Positions 1 to 8,393 are shown, counted from the stretch's first letter. The stretch: 64,000 bases of DNA from an uncultured Gemmatimonadaceae bacterium (GCA_963740355.1 CAVUDW010000003.1:1728001-1792000), one strand, 5' to 3'. A program made the numbers and translations. Notes: generated by a model not told the origin, from the sequence alone.

Positions 1-1344
1 CAGGCCAGCCCCCACGTCTCCCCGGCCGGCGCCATCAATGGCACCTGGTGGGTCGGGGCGACGGGGTTCGACGCCATCGGCGGTGAACGACGCCTCGCCC
101 AGACACTGCTCACCATCGCCCAGCGCTGGCACCCACGGGCCCGGGTCGCGATCGCCGACTCCTGCGCCGCCGCCCGCGCCGCCACCTGGCAGCAGCCGCC
201 CGCCGGCCAGCCGCTGTCGTTCTGCATCCCCTCCGGCGGCGACGCAGCCTTCCTCGCCCCCCTCCCGCTGGGCTTCCTCCCGCTCGACGACGAGCTGGTG
301 GCCGCCCTCGAGGCGCTGGGCATCAAGACGGTGGGTGGCTTCGCAGCCCTGCCGGTGGCCGACATCGAACGGCGCTGGGGCGACTCGGGGCTGCGCGCCT
401 GGCGCCTCGCCCACGGCGAGGACTCCCGCCGCCCAGTCCTCGCCCGCCTCGAAGCACACCGATCAGTGACGGCGGAGTTGGGCGGATCCAGCGACACCAT
501 GGAGCCAGCACTCTTCCTCGTCCGGGCCGCCCTCGAGACGCTGGTGCGCGACCTGGTGCGTGATGGCCTCGCCGCCGCCGCCGTCGCGATCACCCTCCAT
601 CTCGATGGCGGCAAGCAGAAGCGCGACGACCTCACACCGGCCGAAACGATCACGCGCGAGGTGCGCCCCGCACATCCGCTGGCCCGCGTCGCACCACTCT
701 TCGAACGCTGTCGCGCACTGCTGTCCGATTGGGCGATCGTCGCGCCGATCTGCGGTGTCACGGTCACCCTCACCAACACCGTGCCAGCGACGGGTGAACA
801 GGGCGACCTGCTCGATGCGGGTTGGCGCGACCCAGGCGCGGCCCTCGCCGCACTCGAACGCCTGCGCAGCACACTCGGCCCCGATGCGGTGATGCGTCCG
901 GTGTTGCGCGACGATTTCCGCGCCGAGCAGGCCGGCGCGTGGGCCGAACTGGTGGATGGTGATGATGCCGCACTGGCCGCCGCCAACCGTGTGGAGCAGA
1001 ACGCCGTCGATGCACGCCACGACGACACGGCACCCACCACTTACACCGGCACCTGGCTCCCCCTCTTCACCACCGACCGCGCCGCCACGCCCGCTGCACT
1101 ACGCCTGCTCGAAACTCCACAGCCAGTGCGCATGACCTGCGACGCCGAGCACCGTCCAATCGCCGGTGTCTGGCAGTCACACACCTTCACCGTGCAGGAA
1201 TCCATCGGCCCCGAGCGCCTCACCGGCGCCTGGTGGCGCACCCCCTTCGCCCGCGACTACTGGTATCTCCGCACCCGCGAAGTCGGCACCCTCCTCCTCT
1301 ACCACCAGAGCGACGCCTGGGTGCTGCAGGGGTGGTATGACTGA
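1..1344 (+). CDS. imuB: ImuB, inactive Y-family DNA polymerase of the SOS mutagenesis cassette (5' truncated by window edge)
   Basis: Frame is open from base 1. Contains LGIKTVGGFAALP (HhH-like) and the ImuB-type C-terminus GPERLTGAWW..RDYW..WVLQGWYD. Lies upstream of dnaE2. Confidence 0.85.
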   Translation, partial: QASPHVSPAGAINGTWWVGATGFDAIGGERRLAQTLLTIAQRWHPRARVAIADSCAAARAATWQQPPAGQPLSFCIPSGGDAAFLAPLPLGFLPLDDELVAALEALGIKTVGGFAALPVADIERRWGDSGLRAWRLAHGEDSRRPVLARLEAHRSVTAELGGSSDTMEPALFLVRAALETLVRDLVRDGLAAAAVAITLHLDGGKQKRDDLTPAETITREVRPAHPLARVAPLFERCRALLSDWAIVAPICGVTVTLTNTVPATGEQGDLLDAGWRDPGAALAALERLRSTLGPDAVMRPVLRDDFRAEQAGAWAELVDGDDAALAAANRVEQNAVDARHDDTAPTTYTGTWLPLFTTDRAATPAALRLLETPQPVRMTCDAEHRPIAGVWQSHTFTVQESIGPERLTGAWWRTPFARDYWYLRTREVGTLLLYHQSDAWVLQGWYD

Positions 1345-1351
1345 TCCGATC

Positions 1352-2030
<679 letters not shown>

Positions 2031-2035
2031 CAACG

Positions 2036-2476
2036 TCAGAGCAGCGGGTTCCCTTCCCGGTCCGAGATCATCACCCACACACTCCGCGTCCGCTTGCTGT
2101 AGAACAGCCGGACCGTCACATCACGTGGGTTCTGCTTGAACGCAAAGTGGAACGAGAACGTCGTGTCCAGCGACTCCCGCAGCACCCCTTCCTTGAACTG
2201 CCCGTAGAACTGCTGGACCTTGGTGCAGGGCGCGATCTCGCTGAAGAACTTCTTCCCGATCGTCACCTCCTTCGGCAACTGCGCGAGGCGACTCTCGACC
2301 GCGTTGTACTTGAGGATGCGGCCCGTCGCATCGAGCTGGATCATGCCGTACGGCAACGTGTCCAGCTCCTCGCTCGACATGGTGTCGGCCGCCGACAGGA
2401 TTTCCGCCTTGTGCGCTTCATGCGATGCCGGCGTCAATCGCATCATGTCGCGACGCGGTGTCTCAGGGGTGTCCAT
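2036..2476 (-). CDS. pyp: Photoactive yellow protein (PYP) homologue, PAS fold
   Basis: LDTLPYGMIQLDATGRILKYNAVE...IGKKFFSEIAPCT...FYGQFKEG aligns by eye with H. halophila PYP ([24 protein letters not shown]...IGKNFFKDVAPCT...FYGKFKEG). Tyr42, Glu46 and Cys69 equivalents are present. Start chosen at ATG 2476, 7 nt after TATATT. Confidence 0.88.
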   Translation of the reverse strand: MDTPETPRRDMMRLTPASHEAHKAEILSAADTMSSEELDTLPYGMIQLDATGRILKYNAVESRLAQLPKEVTIGKKFFSEIAPCTKVQQFYGQFKEGVLRESLDTTFSFHFAFKQNPRDVTVRLFYSKRTRSVWVMISDREGNPLL

Positions 2477-2505
2477 GCGAGGCAATATAGCCGCGGAGGT
2501 GCGGC

Positions 2506-5500
2506 ATGACCGGCGACGATTACGTCGAGTTGCACGCGCACAGCGCCTTCTCGCTGCTCGATGGTGCCTCTGCACCAGAGGAGCTCATCGCACGTGCCGT
2601 CATCACCGGACAGTTGGCCATCGCACTCACCGATCACGATGAACTCGGCGGGGCCGTCCGGTTTGCACAGGCGGCCGATGCTGCGGGGATTGCCGGCATC
2701 ATCGGGGCCGAACTCACCGTGTCTGCCAACGGCGCCCTGCAGCACCTCACCCTGCTCGCGACATCACGACTCGGTTATGGCAACCTCAGCACACTGATCA
2801 CGCGTGCCCGAATGGACGTGCCGGAACGTGGCGCCCCTTCGGTGCCATTCGACCTGCTGGCCGCGCACACCGATGGGCTCTTCGCGCTCAGCGGCTGTCC
2901 GCGTGGCGCCGTGCCGCAGGCGCTCGCGGCCGGCAACGTCGCCGAGGCCAATCGCATCGCCGGGACGCTGCGCGACCTGTTCGAGGATGCGTTCGCGATC
3001 GAAGTCTGGGATCATCGCTTGCCCGAAGAACATGCGCTGGTGCGACAGCTCATTCCCATCGCGCGTCGCATCGGTGTGCCCTGGGTCGTGACCAACAACG
3101 CCCACTACGCCACCCGTCAGGGCCGCCCCGCGCACGACGCCCTCACCGCACTGCGCCATGGTCGCCCGTTGGACGCCATGGGTACACGGCTGCGACCCAA
3201 TGGCGAGTGGTACCTCAAGTCCACCGCGCTGCATTACAAGCGCTGGCTCGGGCATGAAGCCGGCCTGCGGGCCACACGGGTGATTGCGGAGCGATGCCAG
3301 TTCCGGATCAGTCAGCTCAAGCCATCGCTGCCGCGGTTTCCGTTGCCGCCCGGTGTCAGCGAGGACGACTATCTCGCACAACTCGTCGAGACCGGCGCCA
3401 CCGAACGTTGGGGTCACACGCGCACCCCCGCGCAGGCGAAGCAGCTCGCGCATGAACTGGAAGTCATCCGTCGACTCGACATGGCCGGCTATTTCCTGAT
3501 CGTGTGGGATATCGTCCGTTTCTCCCGCCGCGAAGGGATCCTCTGCCAGGGACGCGGTTCTGCCGCCAACTCCGCCGTCTGCTACTGCCTCGGCATCACC
3601 GCCGTCGATCCGATTCGCATGGAGCTGCTGTTCGAGCGGTTCCTCAGCGAGGATCGTCGCGAGCCGCCGGACATCGACATCGACTTTGCACACCGCGAAC
3701 GTGAGCGGGTGCTGCAATACGTGTACGAGCGCTACGGTCGCGAACATGCGGCGATGGTCTGCGAGCAGATCACCTATCGCGGGCGCAGCGCGGTGCGTGA
3801 TGCCGCGCGCATTCTCGGCTTCTCGCTCGAACAGGGCGATGCACTGGCCGCCGTCAGTGATCGCTTCAGCGCCCGCAGCACCGCCGCCGCCCTGCGCGCC
3901 GGACTCGGCACCGCCAGCGCCGAGGATCTCCGTCGTACCGCGTTCGTCGAGGCGACGCCGCGCAGCATCGGCGCCACTGGGCCAGTGCATCGTGCCGACA
4001 AGCCCGATGCCGAGCTGCCACACATCCAACGCGACCTCGGCAAGCGTGCGTTCGCCGTCGACCTGCCGGAAGCCGAACGCACGCCGACGATTCCCCTCAC
4101 CATGCGCCGCCCCGCCATCCGCACAGCATCGGCCGACATCGATGCCTACGATGGCGAAAACACCATCGACAAACCTGAGCTCCGCAAGCGCTACGAACGC
4201 GAAGAACGCCTCGCGGCCATTCCGTCGGCTCGCACCCGTCGCGTTACGGCCTCTGAACGGTCGCGCGTTGACCTGTCCACCGTGGCGCTCGTGACATCGC
4301 AAACTGCTGGTGAGGGGGAGGCCACGGAGCTCACGGAGTGCTCGACTGGACGGAGTGTCAACACCCGCAACGAACGTGATGGAGTGGTTGATGTGCCCTC
4401 ACCTTCGTCACCAACGTCGCCCTCCACCGACGCTCCGAGTGCCACGCACTCCGTGAGCTCCGTGGCCTCCGCTCCCAATGCAGTTGCAGTTGCAGTTCCG
4501 CCACCACGCACCGACATCCTCGAACGCGCCGGACTCGATCCCAAGGATCCGCGCGTCCGCGCATTGGCCGACATCGTGGACGGTCTGCATCAGCTCCCGC
4601 GTCATCGCTCGATTCACGTCGGTGGGTTCGTGCTCACACGCGAACCGCTGTCGACGGTGGTGCCGATCGAACCGGCATCGATGCCGGGACGCACGGTCAT
4701 CCAGTGGGAACGCGACGATCTCGATGCGGCTAGCCTGGTGAAGATCGACCTGCTCGGCCTTGGCATCCTCACCGTGCTGCAGGATTGCCTGGTGTATGTG
4801 CGACAGACTCGCGGTGTGACCATCGACCTCGCGCTGCTCGACACCAGCGACCAGGCGGTCTACGATGATCTCTGCGCGGCCGATACCATCGGCGTCTTTC
4901 AGGTCGAGAGTCGCGCACAGATGAACACCTTGCCGCGCCTCAAGCCACGCTGCTTCTACGACATCGTGGTCGAGGTGGCGCTGATCCGCCCCGGACCGAT
5001 TCAGGGCGCGATGGTGCATCCGTATCTGCGCCGTCGCGCGGGCGTAGAAGAGGTGGTGTATCCACATCCATCGCTCGAACCGATCCTCAAGCGCACGCTT
5101 GGTGTGCCACTGTTTCAGGAGCAGGGCATGCAGGTGGCCATTGCCTGCGCCGGGTTCACCGCCGGTGAGGCCGACACGCTGCGGCGCGCGATGGGTCACA
5201 AGCGCAGTCACGAAAAGATGGAGGCGCTGCGGCAGAAGATGCTGGCCGGCATGCGAGCCAATGGGATCGACGGCGATGTGGCGAACCGCATCTTCGCGCA
5301 GATCAACGCCTTTGCCGACTACGGCTTTCCCGAGAGTCACGCCGCCAGTTTTGCGTTGCTCGTGTACGCGTCGGCCTGGCTGCGGCACTACTACCATGCC
5401 GAGTTTCTGGCGGCGATGCTCAACGCGCAGCCGATGGGGTTTTATGCGCCCGGGACGTTGATCGAGGATGGGCGCAGGCATGGGGTGGAGGTCCGTGGTG

Positions 5501-6288
5501 TCGATCTGACCTGTTCGGCGTGGGATGCGACGCTCGAGTCGCGCGCACCCGAGTCGAAGGCGCCGGCGATCCGGCTTGGTGTGCGCAGTGTGCGCGGACT
5601 TGGGGCGGCCGCGCGTGGCAAGCTCGAAGCAGCGCTGACCGAAGGAGCATTCAGCGATGTGGGCGATGTCGTGCGGCGCACGCGCCTCGATCGACGTGCA
5701 CTGCGATTGCTGGCCGAGTCGGGGGCGTTTGATGGGATGTTCGCGAACGAGCCACTGGCCACGCGGCGACGGCGGGCGTTGTGGGAAGTGCTGGCGGCGG
5801 TGCGTGGTGATGCTGGCCCGCTGGCACCGTCGGTGTTGCTGCCCGATGCAGCCTTGCCGCGGATGTCGATGGCCGACCTCACCGAGGCCGATTATCGCGT
5901 GATGGGGGTGTCGCTGAACGGGCATCCGATGCGGCACCTGCGGCCGTTGCTGCAACCGAATGGCATCCGGAGCGCGCGCGACATTCAGGCCAACGGCCGT
6001 GATACCGAGCAGGTCGCGATCGCGGGCCTCGTCATCTGCCGCCAGCGCCCCAGCACGGCGAAGGGATTCGTGTTCCTGTCGCTGGAGGACGAGACCGGCA
6101 TCGTGAACGTCGTCGTCACCCCGCAGCGGTTCGAGCGTGATGCCCTCAAGATCAGCACCTCGCCCCTGCTGCTGGTGCGTGGCACGCTGCAGGTGGAGTC
6201 GAACGTGGTGACGCTGCGCGGCCGGCTCTTCGTGCCGCTCGATGCACAGCTCGGGGCCGAACATGCGCGCAGCCACGATTTCCGGTGA
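2506..6288 (+). CDS. dnaE2: Error-prone DNA polymerase DnaE2 (ImuC) with a ~200-aa internal insertion
   Basis: PHP motif ELHAHSAFSLLDG, GRGSAANS, PPDIDIDF, KIDLLGLG, YGFPESHA, OB fold RQRPSTAKG and C-terminal SHDFR. GGAGG RBS upstream. Confidence 0.95.
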   Translation: MTGDDYVELHAHSAFSLLDGASAPEELIARAVITGQLAIALTDHDELGGAVRFAQAADAAGIAGIIGAELTVSANGALQHLTLLATSRLGYGNLSTLITRARMDVPERGAPSVPFDLLAAHTDGLFALSGCPRGAVPQALAAGNVAEANRIAGTLRDLFEDAFAIEVWDHRLPEEHALVRQLIPIARRIGVPWVVTNNAHYATRQGRPAHDALTALRHGRPLDAMGTRLRPNGEWYLKSTALHYKRWLGHEAGLRATRVIAERCQFRISQLKPSLPRFPLPPGVSEDDYLAQLVETGATERWGHTRTPAQAKQLAHELEVIRRLDMAGYFLIVWDIVRFSRREGILCQGRGSAANSAVCYCLGITAVDPIRMELLFERFLSEDRREPPDIDIDFAHRERERVLQYVYERYGREHAAMVCEQITYRGRSAVRDAARILGFSLEQGDALAAVSDRFSARSTAAALRAGLGTASAEDLRRTAFVEATPRSIGATGPVHRADKPDAELPHIQRDLGKRAFAVDLPEAERTPTIPLTMRRPAIRTASADIDAYDGENTIDKPELRKRYEREERLAAIPSARTRRVTASERSRVDLSTVALVTSQTAGEGEATELTECSTGRSVNTRNERDGVVDVPSPSSPTSPSTDAPSATHSVSSVASAPNAVAVAVPPPRTDILERAGLDPKDPRVRALADIVDGLHQLPRHRSIHVGGFVLTREPLSTVVPIEPASMPGRTVIQWERDDLDAASLVKIDLLGLGILTVLQDCLVYVRQTRGVTIDLALLDTSDQAVYDDLCAADTIGVFQVESRAQMNTLPRLKPRCFYDIVVEVALIRPGPIQGAMVHPYLRRRAGVEEVVYPHPSLEPILKRTLGVPLFQEQGMQVAIACAGFTAGEADTLRRAMGHKRSHEKMEALRQKMLAGMRANGIDGDVANRIFAQINAFADYGFPESHAASFALLVYASAWLRHYYHAEFLAAMLNAQPMGFYAPGTLIEDGRRHGVEVRGVDLTCSAWDATLESRAPESKAPAIRLGVRSVRGLGAAARGKLEAALTEGAFSDVGDVVRRTRLDRRALRLLAESGAFDGMFANEPLATRRRRALWEVLAAVRGDAGPLAPSVLLPDAALPRMSMADLTEADYRVMGVSLNGHPMRHLRPLLQPNGIRSARDIQANGRDTEQVAIAGLVICRQRPSTAKGFVFLSLEDETGIVNVVVTPQRFERDALKISTSPLLLVRGTLQVESNVVTLRGRLFVPLDAQLGAEHARSHDFR
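4317..4497. repeat. Palindromic element embedded in-frame in dnaE2
   Basis: Perfect 25-bp IR GGAGGCCACGGAGCTCACGGAGTGC (4317-4341) / GCACTCCGTGAGCTCCGTGGCCTCC (4446-4470), followed by GCAGTT x3 as in the intergenic repeats. Confidence 0.85.
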
Positions 6289-6376
6289 CAGGGGTAGCAC
6301 ACACAGGGGTTCAGGCGCGCTCGACTGTCTGGTGTGTAGCGGCCTACCTTTCGATTCGCGCTCACCCGGACACTGC

Positions 6377-6871
6377 ATGCGCACTCCACTGCTCGTCACG
6401 CTCCTCTGCCTCACGACAGGCCTCACCGCCTGCATGCCGCCCAAGTCGCTGCCCCCAAAGCCGCGGCCAGACGATACCGACCTGCAGGATCAGCTCTTTG
6501 CCGCCGACCGCGCTTTCGCGCGGGCGGTGGCCGACAGTGGCGCACCGGCTTGGAATGCGCGGCTCGCAGACGACATCGCCAAACCCGGGAACGGAGGCCT
6601 CATCCTGCTCCGCGGCATCGTACCCGTGGCCGCCAACGACAAGTCGCTCTTCGCCGACGCCGCCCAGCTGCTCGTCTGGGAGCCAACCGACGCGGTCGCG
6701 TACACCGATCGTGTGACGGGGGTCACGGTAGGGCGGTATGCTATGGTTCGTCGCAGTGTCCGCACCGATACCCTCACCCGCGGCCGCTACCTCACGCTCT
6801 GGCGCAAGCAGTCCGATGGTCGCTGGAAGATCATGCTCGACACCGGCTGGCCCGACACGCCGAACAAGTAG
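6377..6871 (+). CDS. NTF2-like/DUF4440 family lipoprotein
   Basis: Lipobox LTAC. QLFAADRAFARA and GRYLTLWRKQSDGRWKIMLDTG are typical of DUF4440/YybH. Confidence 0.75.
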   Translation: MRTPLLVTLLCLTTGLTACMPPKSLPPKPRPDDTDLQDQLFAADRAFARAVADSGAPAWNARLADDIAKPGNGGLILLRGIVPVAANDKSLFADAAQLLVWEPTDAVAYTDRVTGVTVGRYAMVRRSVRTDTLTRGRYLTLWRKQSDGRWKIMLDTGWPDTPNK

Positions 6872-6903
6872 TCCAGGCAGAAACCGAGACCATCTTTCCG
6901 TCC

Positions 6904-7503
6904 ATGCTGCGCGACCTCCTGCCACCGGCCCTTCGCGATCGGTACGACGCGAATCGCTCCGACAAACGCGACATCGACGGGGTGCAGGCCTGGTTCCTCA
7001 ACGAGCGTGAGGACATCGACAACGCGCACCTGGTCTCGCGCTTCACCGAAGCGCTGACGCTGATCGGCAAGTACATGCCGCGCCACCTGCGCCGCCTGCG
7101 TCAGGACGTGCACTGCATCTGGGTCAAGCGCTGGCCCAACCGCGGGATCTTTTTCCACGACACCCGCATCATGGTGATCGACACCACCTTCGTCGTGAAT
7201 CCGACCTTCACGCTGGCGCAGGTGGCGGCCACGATCCTGCACGAAGGGGTGCATGCGCGCATCACGGCCATGCGAGTCAACCGTCGCTACACCAACATCG
7301 CTGACGAAGAGCGCATGTGTCGCCGTGCCGAGATCGCGTTCGGGCAACTGGCGCCAGGTGGCGCGCCGGTGGTGGCACGCGCGATGGAAATCCTTGGCCT
7401 CACCGACGACGAGGTGGCGCCAGGCATCGACCTCGCCGTGGCGGACGCCAAGCTCCGCGAGCTACGCAAGCGTGAAGGGGGTTCAGGGAGCGGCAACGTC
7501 TAG
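6904..7503 (+). CDS. Hypothetical protein with HEXXH zinc-metallopeptidase-like motif
   Basis: ATILHEGVH followed by a downstream EERMC. Good codon usage. Fills the gap between neighbouring genes. Confidence 0.6.
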   Translation: MLRDLLPPALRDRYDANRSDKRDIDGVQAWFLNEREDIDNAHLVSRFTEALTLIGKYMPRHLRRLRQDVHCIWVKRWPNRGIFFHDTRIMVIDTTFVVNPTFTLAQVAATILHEGVHARITAMRVNRRYTNIADEERMCRRAEIAFGQLAPGGAPVVARAMEILGLTDDEVAPGIDLAVADAKLRELRKREGGSGSGNV

Positions 7504-7517
7504 CTACGCTTGTGGCC

Positions 7518-8393
7518 ATGCCACGTGTCGCCTTCCTCACGCTCGAAAACATCGCCGACTTCGTGATCGACGATGCGCTGGCCATTGCCGAACTGACCCG
7601 CCGCGGGTGGGATGCCACCGAGGTGCCGTGGTCACGCGCTGACGTCGACTGGAGCAGCTACGACCTGGTGGTCATTCGCACCACCTGGGACTACCACGAT
7701 CGGCCGGTCGAGTTTCTCGCCACGCTGGCGGCCATCGAAGCCAGCGGCACACGGCTGGAGAACCCGCGCGACCTGGTGGTCTGGAACCTCGACAAGCAGT
7801 ACCTGCGCAGCCTCGAGGCGCGCGGCGTGCCGATCGTTCCCAGCGTCTGGGGACATGGTGGTGATGCGAAAGTTTTTGCCGCGCTCTTCACCACGCTGCA
7901 GGACACCGAGATCGTCATCAAGCCGACCATCAGCGGTGGCGCGAAGAACACCTTTCGCGTGCATGCGCCGATCGATGACGTGACGATGCAGCACCTGATC
8001 GACACCTTCGCCGAGCGGGACTGGTTTGCCCAGGCCTTCCTCCGCTCCGTCATCACCGAGGGTGAGTACTCGCTCTTCTATTTCGTTGGCAAGATCAGCC
8101 ATGCCGTGCAGAAGATTCCGAAGTCAGGCGATTTCCGGGTGCAGGAAGAGCATGGCGGCGACATCAAGGGCATGACGATCACGCCTGAACTTCGCCGCGC
8201 GGCTGACCACGTGCTGGCCGCAATCACACCAGCGCCACTGCAGGCGCGCATCGACCTCGTGCGACTCGCCGACGGAACCCTGGGCGTGATGGAAGTCGAG
8301 TTGATCGAGCCGTCGCTCTATCTGCGCATGCATCCAGACGCGCCGTCGAACTTTGCCGATGCGCTCGATGCGCGCGTTCAGCAGGTCGGCTGA
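7518..8393 (+). CDS. ATP-grasp (RimK/glutathione synthetase-like) protein
   Basis: VIRTTWDY, WNLDKQYL, VIKPTISGGA, DFRVQEEHGG, MEVELIEPSLY. Confidence 0.85.
   Translation: MPRVAFLTLENIADFVIDDALAIAELTRRGWDATEVPWSRADVDWSSYDLVVIRTTWDYHDRPVEFLATLAAIEASGTRLENPRDLVVWNLDKQYLRSLEARGVPIVPSVWGHGGDAKVFAALFTTLQDTEIVIKPTISGGAKNTFRVHAPIDDVTMQHLIDTFAERDWFAQAFLRSVITEGEYSLFYFVGKISHAVQKIPKSGDFRVQEEHGGDIKGMTITPELRRAADHVLAAITPAPLQARIDLVRLADGTLGVMEVELIEPSLYLRMHPDAPSNFADALDARVQQVG

Follow-up and report, generated by a model that had tools for sequence, protein, structure and literature searches.

Introduction

The genes imuA, imuB and dnaE2 form a mutagenesis cassette of the SOS response. Where this cassette is split, a box has been reported at each piece (PMC3901139). 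Here we analyze a stretch of 64,000 nucleotides (nt) from an uncultured Gemmatimonadaceae bacterium (GCA_963740355.1 CAVUDW010000003.1:1728001-1792000; the whole stretch is referred to as the window), in which a gene for a predicted photoactive yellow protein (pyp, PYP) runs backwards between imuB and dnaE2. The locus shares with the described cassettes a DnaE2 above the profile cut-off, an ImuB without the motif I aspartates and the presence of ImuA; each separated piece also has a candidate SOS-type box. It differs in the antisense pyp between imuB and dnaE2, in the TTCGG-N6-TTCGG form of its box, and in a hypervariable insert in DnaE2.

The closest described arrangement is the noncontiguous operon of Staphylococcus aureus, menE-menC-MW1733-ytkD-MW1731, where the excludon mechanism described is one of reciprocal control through colliding polymerases and RNase III (PMC7154746). 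In both loci a single gene sits among the others on the opposite strand and has a promoter of its own. Unlike the S. aureus operon, the locus studied here has an SOS mutagenesis cassette as host, a predicted photoreceptor as the antisense gene and a family-wide layout, and its co-transcription is deduced from operator placement.

The PYP is closest to the single-domain clade A proteins, such as that of Halorhodospira halophila (PMC9664959, PMC12826048), with which it shares the fold, Y42, E46, C69 and the consensus residues at 47, 49, 50 and 52. Unlike these, it carries M100Q and has no neighboring gene for a tyrosine ammonia lyase (TAL), p-coumaroyl-CoA ligase (pCL), kinase, GGDEF protein or chemoreceptor. 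Both family surveys describe what single-domain PYPs signal to as an open gap. Data Set S3 of PMC9664959 has 'error-prone DNA polymerase' and 'UvsE' as PYP neighbors, one row each, with no comment in the accessible text, and the main text of PMC12826048 does not mention 'DNA repair', 'polymerase' or 'SOS'. A literature search, with subscription papers and bioRxiv supplements outside it, found nothing pairing PYP with UV damage endonuclease and returned a single paper, PMC8508746, for PYP with dnaE2.

Results

Conservation of pyp between imuB and dnaE2

Between the end of imuB (1344) and the start of dnaE2 (2506) lie 1161 nt, which hold a cluster of repeats and the antisense pyp (Table 1). The pyp and dnaE2 starts are head-to-head, 29 bp apart, and the -10-like hexamer of pyp sits beside the dnaE2 ribosome-binding site. 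The earlier note on this DNA described these features, and its coordinates hold. It also placed pyp inside the imuB-dnaE2 mutagenesis cassette, where it indeed lies; imuA, usually part of a contiguous cassette, is not part of it here, being 45 kb away with its own box. The gene order is interrupted by pyp and by the splitting off of imuA; split forms are known (PMC3901139). On the 5' side of imuB, translations point to a toxin-antitoxin-like pair and an Rhs-like gene, with no imuA.

The same note proposed a comparison of synteny across relatives, which bears out the arrangement. Our genus set comprised 20 genomes, this one included. A pyp orthologue is present in 18 of them (84-92% identity), facing dnaE2 in 17 of the 18 and with imuB on its far side in 15; two of the remaining contigs end and one is rearranged. 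The other two genomes are G001, where no pyp orthologue was found, and G008 (81% complete), where only a paralogue and no dnaE2 match were found. In a scan of GTDB genomes, the best 80 of 454 related stretches were kept, three of which end too near pyp to judge. The head-to-head arrangement is present in 69 of the 77 informative loci and absent from 8. The pyp-in-cassette layout is thus beyond chance, both within the genus and across the wider set.

Of 11 dnaE2 loci of pyp-less genomes, imuB abuts dnaE2 in 9 (one of them, L157, is from the unpublished genome G026). The contiguous cassette is therefore probably ancestral, and pyp probably an insertion. In a quick DnaE2 tree, at least five deep lineages carry the imuB-pyp-dnaE2 layout, and pyp-less lineages stand between them. 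This pattern takes at least five changes and is compatible with one gain followed by losses and with repeated transfer alike.

Individual loci vary. G011 (L067:4919-7138, L148) has a xanthine-dehydrogenase-like cluster between pyp and dnaE2, and its dnaE2 has its own box. In L128, imuA-imuB is followed by two tandem pyp copies and a RecA-family gene in place of dnaE2. L074 is titled Candidatus Kuenenia stuttgartiensis, and its PYP and DnaE2 nest among Gemmatimonas; it is probably mislabeled or misbinned.

A candidate LexA box and its placement

A direct repeat, TTCGG-N6-TTCGG (consensus TTCGGTRTTTRTTCGGT), lies 5' of lexA (twice), imuA, imuB and dinB in the genome of the window (G000). A position weight matrix (PWM) for the box was trained solely on 45 imuA and imuB promoter sites. 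Its top site in the genome is the imuB box, about 90 nt before the imuB start and outside the window. Eleven sites in G000 exceed 14 bits, and six of these precede imuB, imuA, ruvB, lexA, recA and a uvrC-like gene (ruvB and the uvrC-like gene were named from translations). Frequency was rejected as support, as the 17 occurrences of TTCGG-N6-TTCGG in G000 are not above those of other spacings (12-47). With the count unremarkable, the support comes from position at SOS genes. The repeat resembles the alphaproteobacterial LexA box, GTTC-N7-GTTC (PMC8565304), which is also a direct repeat with an 11-bp period 5' of SOS genes. Unlike that box, this candidate has TTCGG half-sites and a T-rich spacer. 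No description of a Gemmatimonadota LexA operator was found among the titles and abstracts that a literature search returned, and we read TTCGG-N6-TTCGG as the candidate LexA box of this phylum. A second, divergent lexA-like gene of 218 amino acids (aa) is also present in G000 (L054:1045-1698).

The 69 head-to-head loci fall into 31 with imuB adjacent, 34 with imuB displaced, and 4 that are too short. With imuB adjacent, the stretch from imuB to dnaE2 lacks a box in 29 of 31 loci. Among the 24 imuB-adjacent loci with a readable promoter, a box stands 5' of imuA or imuB in every one (these are sites that trained the PWM), and imuA is adjacent in 10. Where imuB is displaced, all 34 loci have a box: 30 in the gap between pyp and dnaE2, and 4 (L104, L106, L108, L133) just past the pyp stop, pointing through pyp. 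In many Gemmatimonas the box overlaps a -10-like TATATT just before dnaE2.

Probable transcription across the locus

The sole conserved TANNNT in the region is the -10 of pyp, present in 14 of 15 genus copies with varying N positions (TAGATT, TACATT, TATGTT). No TANNNT towards dnaE2 is common to 40% or more of the same 15 copies. As none is conserved, we rejected the idea that dnaE2 is served by a sigma-70 promoter in the gap or within pyp. With just 7 nt between its -10 and its ATG, pyp likely has a leaderless mRNA; the matching -35 region would coincide with the first codons of dnaE2. The dnaE2 gene keeps a ribosome-binding site, and this GGAGG region is G-rich in most genus copies. Its mRNA should therefore be leadered and begin further upstream, inside or beyond pyp. 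Terminator-like hits were not above chance (4 vs 3.3), and several lineages have just 2-20 nt between the stops of imuB and pyp, which leaves no room for terminators.

Because no conserved TANNNT points towards dnaE2 and box placement tracks imuB adjacency, dnaE2 probably depends on read-through antisense to pyp. The earlier note had offered read-through or a promoter within pyp as routes to dnaE2. Box placement probably favors the former, and the latter has no conserved TANNNT.

The arrangement of genes and boxes suggests that imuB-pyp-dnaE2 is a noncontiguous SOS operon, a reading to which we give slightly better than even chances. In such an operon, a LexA-repressed transcript would start at the imuB promoter, cross pyp backwards and deliver dnaE2. 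The likely leaderless pyp transcript would start beside the dnaE2 ribosome-binding site and run the opposite way. With pyp backwards inside the cassette, its transcript likely overlaps that of dnaE2, and each likely dampens the other, perhaps by polymerase collision or by decay of double-stranded RNA. Steady pyp transcription would hold down leaky expression of dnaE2; on SOS induction this suppression would be overridden and pyp damped. By analogy with the S. aureus precedent such mutual interference is likely, as is a coupling of pyp and dnaE2 at the level of transcription.

The repeat cluster is not part of this arrangement. Its repeat is a dispersed fold-back family, with matches in 64 bins of 1.5 kb across the genome, and the predicted RNA fold of its + strand is a long hairpin (-350 kcal/mol). 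In several relatives the spacer that holds it is down to 2-20 nt. Being dispersed and dispensable, the cluster, which the earlier note had listed between imuB and dnaE2, was rejected as a regulatory part.

Identity of the PYP

The protein scores 105 bits against TIGR02373 (E 2e-30), below the cut-off of 143. Because that model recognizes only about 20% of PYP homologues (PMC9664959), the score does not exclude membership. The protein matches a PYP of known structure in the PDB at E 1e-23, and alignment to the Halorhodospira protein recovers Y42, E46 and C69. Its fold model (predicted local distance difference test score 70.9) retrieves PYPs at Foldseek ranks 1-29, with a template modeling score of about 0.75. 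These three chromophore residues do not vary in any of the 71 aligned orthologues, which were parsed from the 80 loci. The window's PYP has S47, L49, A50 and L52, the family consensus at these positions (PMC12826048), and Q in place of M100. A50 and L52 were considered as signs of decay and rejected, since both are consensus. Among 15 genus copies pyp is under purifying selection (nonsynonymous divergence 0.034 vs synonymous 0.57), like the catalytic region of DnaE2. The protein is predicted to be a working blue-light sensor.

A TAL-like lyase is encoded in 5 of the 19 other genus genomes, in 4 of them beside a different PYP. Chromophore genes are often absent from pyp operons; uptake has been proposed, and generic CoA ligases could serve (PMC12826048).

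Light, phototrophy and repair genes

The reaction-center gene pufM is present in 12 of 15 orthologue-bearing family genomes vs 2 of 81 others. Within one genus the link between pyp and pufM is 8/8 phototrophs vs 2/8 others, kin that are not independent, and pufM occurs in 18 of the 19 other genomes of the window's genus. Phototrophy as an absolute correlate of pyp was rejected: only 5 of 10 further pyp-bearing metagenome-assembled genomes (MAGs), of unknown completeness, have pufM, and G001 has pufM with no pyp found. PYP is predicted to be kept mainly by phototrophs, possibly with scavenged p-coumarate as the chromophore source.

RNA sequencing of Gemmatimonas phototrophica in light and dark shows pyp unchanged in 10 of 10 contrasts (PMC11406998 Tables S1, S3). 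Its dnaE2 changes by at most 0.82 log2 (less than 2-fold), with one of 10 contrasts significant (+0.58), and two photolyases rise by about 1.6 log2 (about 3-fold) in high light. In this species pyp is flanked by a phosphodiesterase gene, not imuB. A MAG titled G. phototrophica (L083) has its box in the gap, so these data bear on the own-box layout and not on that of the window.

CarH and LitR regulons carry 11-bp TnnACA repeats (PMC9304148). At the pyp promoter such repeats were found in 0 of 28 class A loci (none in the window), 0 of 4 class B and 3 of 30 class C, which sets the cassette apart from those regulons. A PpsR-type site has the motif TGT-N12-ACA. Of the 28 class A loci, 4 have such a site at the pyp promoter, at scattered places, and none occurs in positions 1-7000 of the window.

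In another family, f8, 27 of 30 loci have the best PYP gene 27-391 bp 5' of uvdE, with both genes on one strand (L038:1501-2895, L213-L241; one f8 locus, L230, comes from the unpublished genome G439). Like CarH/LitR regulons, 17 of the 30 f8 pyp-uvdE promoters carry tandem TnnACA-type repeats over the -35, where 0.23 would be expected. Position 42 is F in 28 of the 30 PYPs. A 28-row tree of Gemmatimonadota sequences only puts the f8 PYP clade together with the cassette PYPs and separates both from other Gemmatimonadota paralogues, at modest support. No uvdE was found in the 20 genus genomes.

The earlier note suggested a module linking light sensing to error-prone repair. Its light-control half, that of dnaE2 by light, is not supported: pyp is flat and dnaE2 changes less than 2-fold in G. 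phototrophica, with its own-box layout, and the cassette has no CarH operator. A repair-related role for these orphan PYPs is a likely candidate, with circumstantial backing in the pyp-uvdE pairing and the co-occurrence with pufM.

Features of the locus and the genome

DnaE2 scores 1262 bits on NF004225 (cut-off 939), and a separate dnaE1 sits on C2 of the genome. By inspection, the N-terminus of ImuB lacks the motif I aspartates that are present in this genome's DinB, which marks ImuB as a predicted catalytically dead Y-family type. DnaE2 has an in-frame variable insert of about 215 aa (approximately 3871-4515). In those relatives for which the QITYR and HRSIH motifs were both parsed, it spans 155-361 aa from one motif to the other. 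Here the insert includes one copy of the dispersed repeat as well as an inverted repeat (4302-4341 / 4446-4485). Downstream, an open reading frame (ORF) at 6904-7503 has no Pfam match and a weak HExxH-type hit to TIGR04267 below cut-off; an ATP-grasp gene follows (7512-8393). The genome encodes both photolyase and pufM. A photosynthesis gene cluster at about 1450000-1470000 of C2 holds pufM, pufL, a bchF-like gene and a ppaA-like B12-binding gene.

Table 1. Positions of the cassette features in the window and of candidate LexA boxes in the genome (C1 to C4, contigs of G000)
Feature	Position	Strand	Remarks
imuB, 3' part	1..1344	+	563 aa in full ORF; start 348 nt before the window; Pfam IMS_C
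Fold-back repeat cluster	1345..2035		no strand; inverted arms such as 1351-1429 / 1687-1765
pyp, predicted single-domain photoactive yellow protein, 146 aa	2036..2476	-	profile, PDB alignment, fold model
pyp -10 element TATATT (AATATA on + strand)	2484..2489	-	7 nt before pyp ATG
dnaE2 ribosome-binding site GGAGG	2495..2499	+	6 nt before dnaE2 ATG
dnaE2 (imuC), error-prone polymerase, 1260 aa	2506..6288	+	NF004225 above cut-off; Pfam domains
Candidate LexA box, imuB	C3:1727562		
Candidate LexA box, imuA	C3:1682245		
Candidate LexA box, lexA	C2:2522167		
Candidate LexA box, recA	C1:90130		
Candidate LexA box, ruvB	C2:715078		
Candidate LexA box, dinB	C4:70441		

Discussion

The locus is a real, old variant of the imuAB-dnaE2 cassette, for which the same literature search returned no description. 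Several observations weigh against reading it as a noncontiguous SOS operon. The link between box and layout comes down to few independent tree pairs (3 concordant, 0 discordant, 2 uninformative, p 0.25), so that, through kinship, the split of 29/31 vs 34/34 suggests more events than there were. Where the box lies in the gap (30 loci), no overlap of the transcripts is required and pyp is still adjacent; interference is not what keeps the genes together there. The pyp gene has been lost in G001 and parted from dnaE2 in 8 of 77 loci. Untranslated stretches can invite Rho termination, and the 1161 nt between imuB and dnaE2 could do so. The chromophore supply is also thin. TIGR02372 (pCL) is above cut-off in 0 of 61 genomes, and hutH was the only aromatic lyase found in G000. 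A second aromatic lyase is present in 4 of the 19 other genus genomes, and a fifth, G008, has only that divergent type.

The persistence of pyp next to dnaE2 could instead be attributed to entrapment, with a single insertion, read-through of no regulatory consequence and a PYP that serves phototrophy independently. The junction of 30-150 bp holds the start signals of both genes, so few rearrangements could separate them. In keeping with this, pyp survives without an adjacent dnaE2 in the 8 split loci, dnaE2 is common in pyp-less genomes, three regulatory layouts coexist, pyp tracks pufM rather than dnaE2, and dnaE2 has no light response in G. phototrophica. However, other junctions of the locus turn over much faster: 47 regions 3' of dnaE2 make up 18 clusters, while 9 clusters account for the 31 regions 3' of pyp where imuB is gone. 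A related PYP clade is independently tied to a repair gene, uvdE, and in four loci a new box was placed beyond pyp, so that the overlap was kept. We consider such a passenger unlikely. A LexA-independent promoter of dnaE2's own inside pyp or the repeat cluster, for which an alternative sigma factor would be needed, is highly improbable. The long spacer could terminate imuB transcripts, and our promoter scans covered sigma-70-type -10 elements only, but dnaE2 has a LexA-like box in all 34 loci that imuB has left, where with an internal promoter it would need none, and the repeats are dispensable.

A direct role of the protein would be a further possibility. Holo-PYP might bind DnaE2, ImuB or an SOS regulator, and blue light would thereby prime error-prone repair or block it, for example to the benefit of photoreactivation. 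This would agree with the invariant chromophore residues, with purifying selection as strong as that on the DnaE2 catalytic region, with adjacency that persists in the 30 loci where transcription is uncoupled, with the related pyp-uvdE pairing and its CarH-type repeats, and with the presence of photolyase and pufM in G000. Yet DnaE2 persists in genomes with no detected pyp, one of them in the same genus, chromophore enzymes were mostly not found, and gene adjacency alone is weak evidence of binding. We regard such light gating as improbable. Read instead as a noncontiguous SOS operon, imuB-pyp-dnaE2 has natural intermediates, in loci with no box, a box beyond pyp, a box in the gap, or both.

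More broadly, one Gemmatimonadota PYP lineage might provide a dedicated light input to DNA repair. In one family it would share a transcript with uvdE, controlled by a CarH-type operator. In another it would be built into the mutasome cassette, and there the light-activated PYP or its antisense transcript would set the level of error-prone repair. We offer this tentatively and think it rather unlikely as a whole. If true, it would give single-domain PYPs their first DNA-repair output and sunlight a route to mutation rate. The two conserved links of related Gemmatimonadota PYPs to DNA repair genes already suggest a specific candidate for that output. The candidate LexA operator, in a phylum for which we found none described, opens its SOS regulon to prediction, and the locus itself is a family-wide candidate for a noncontiguous operon that would control a mutagenic polymerase.

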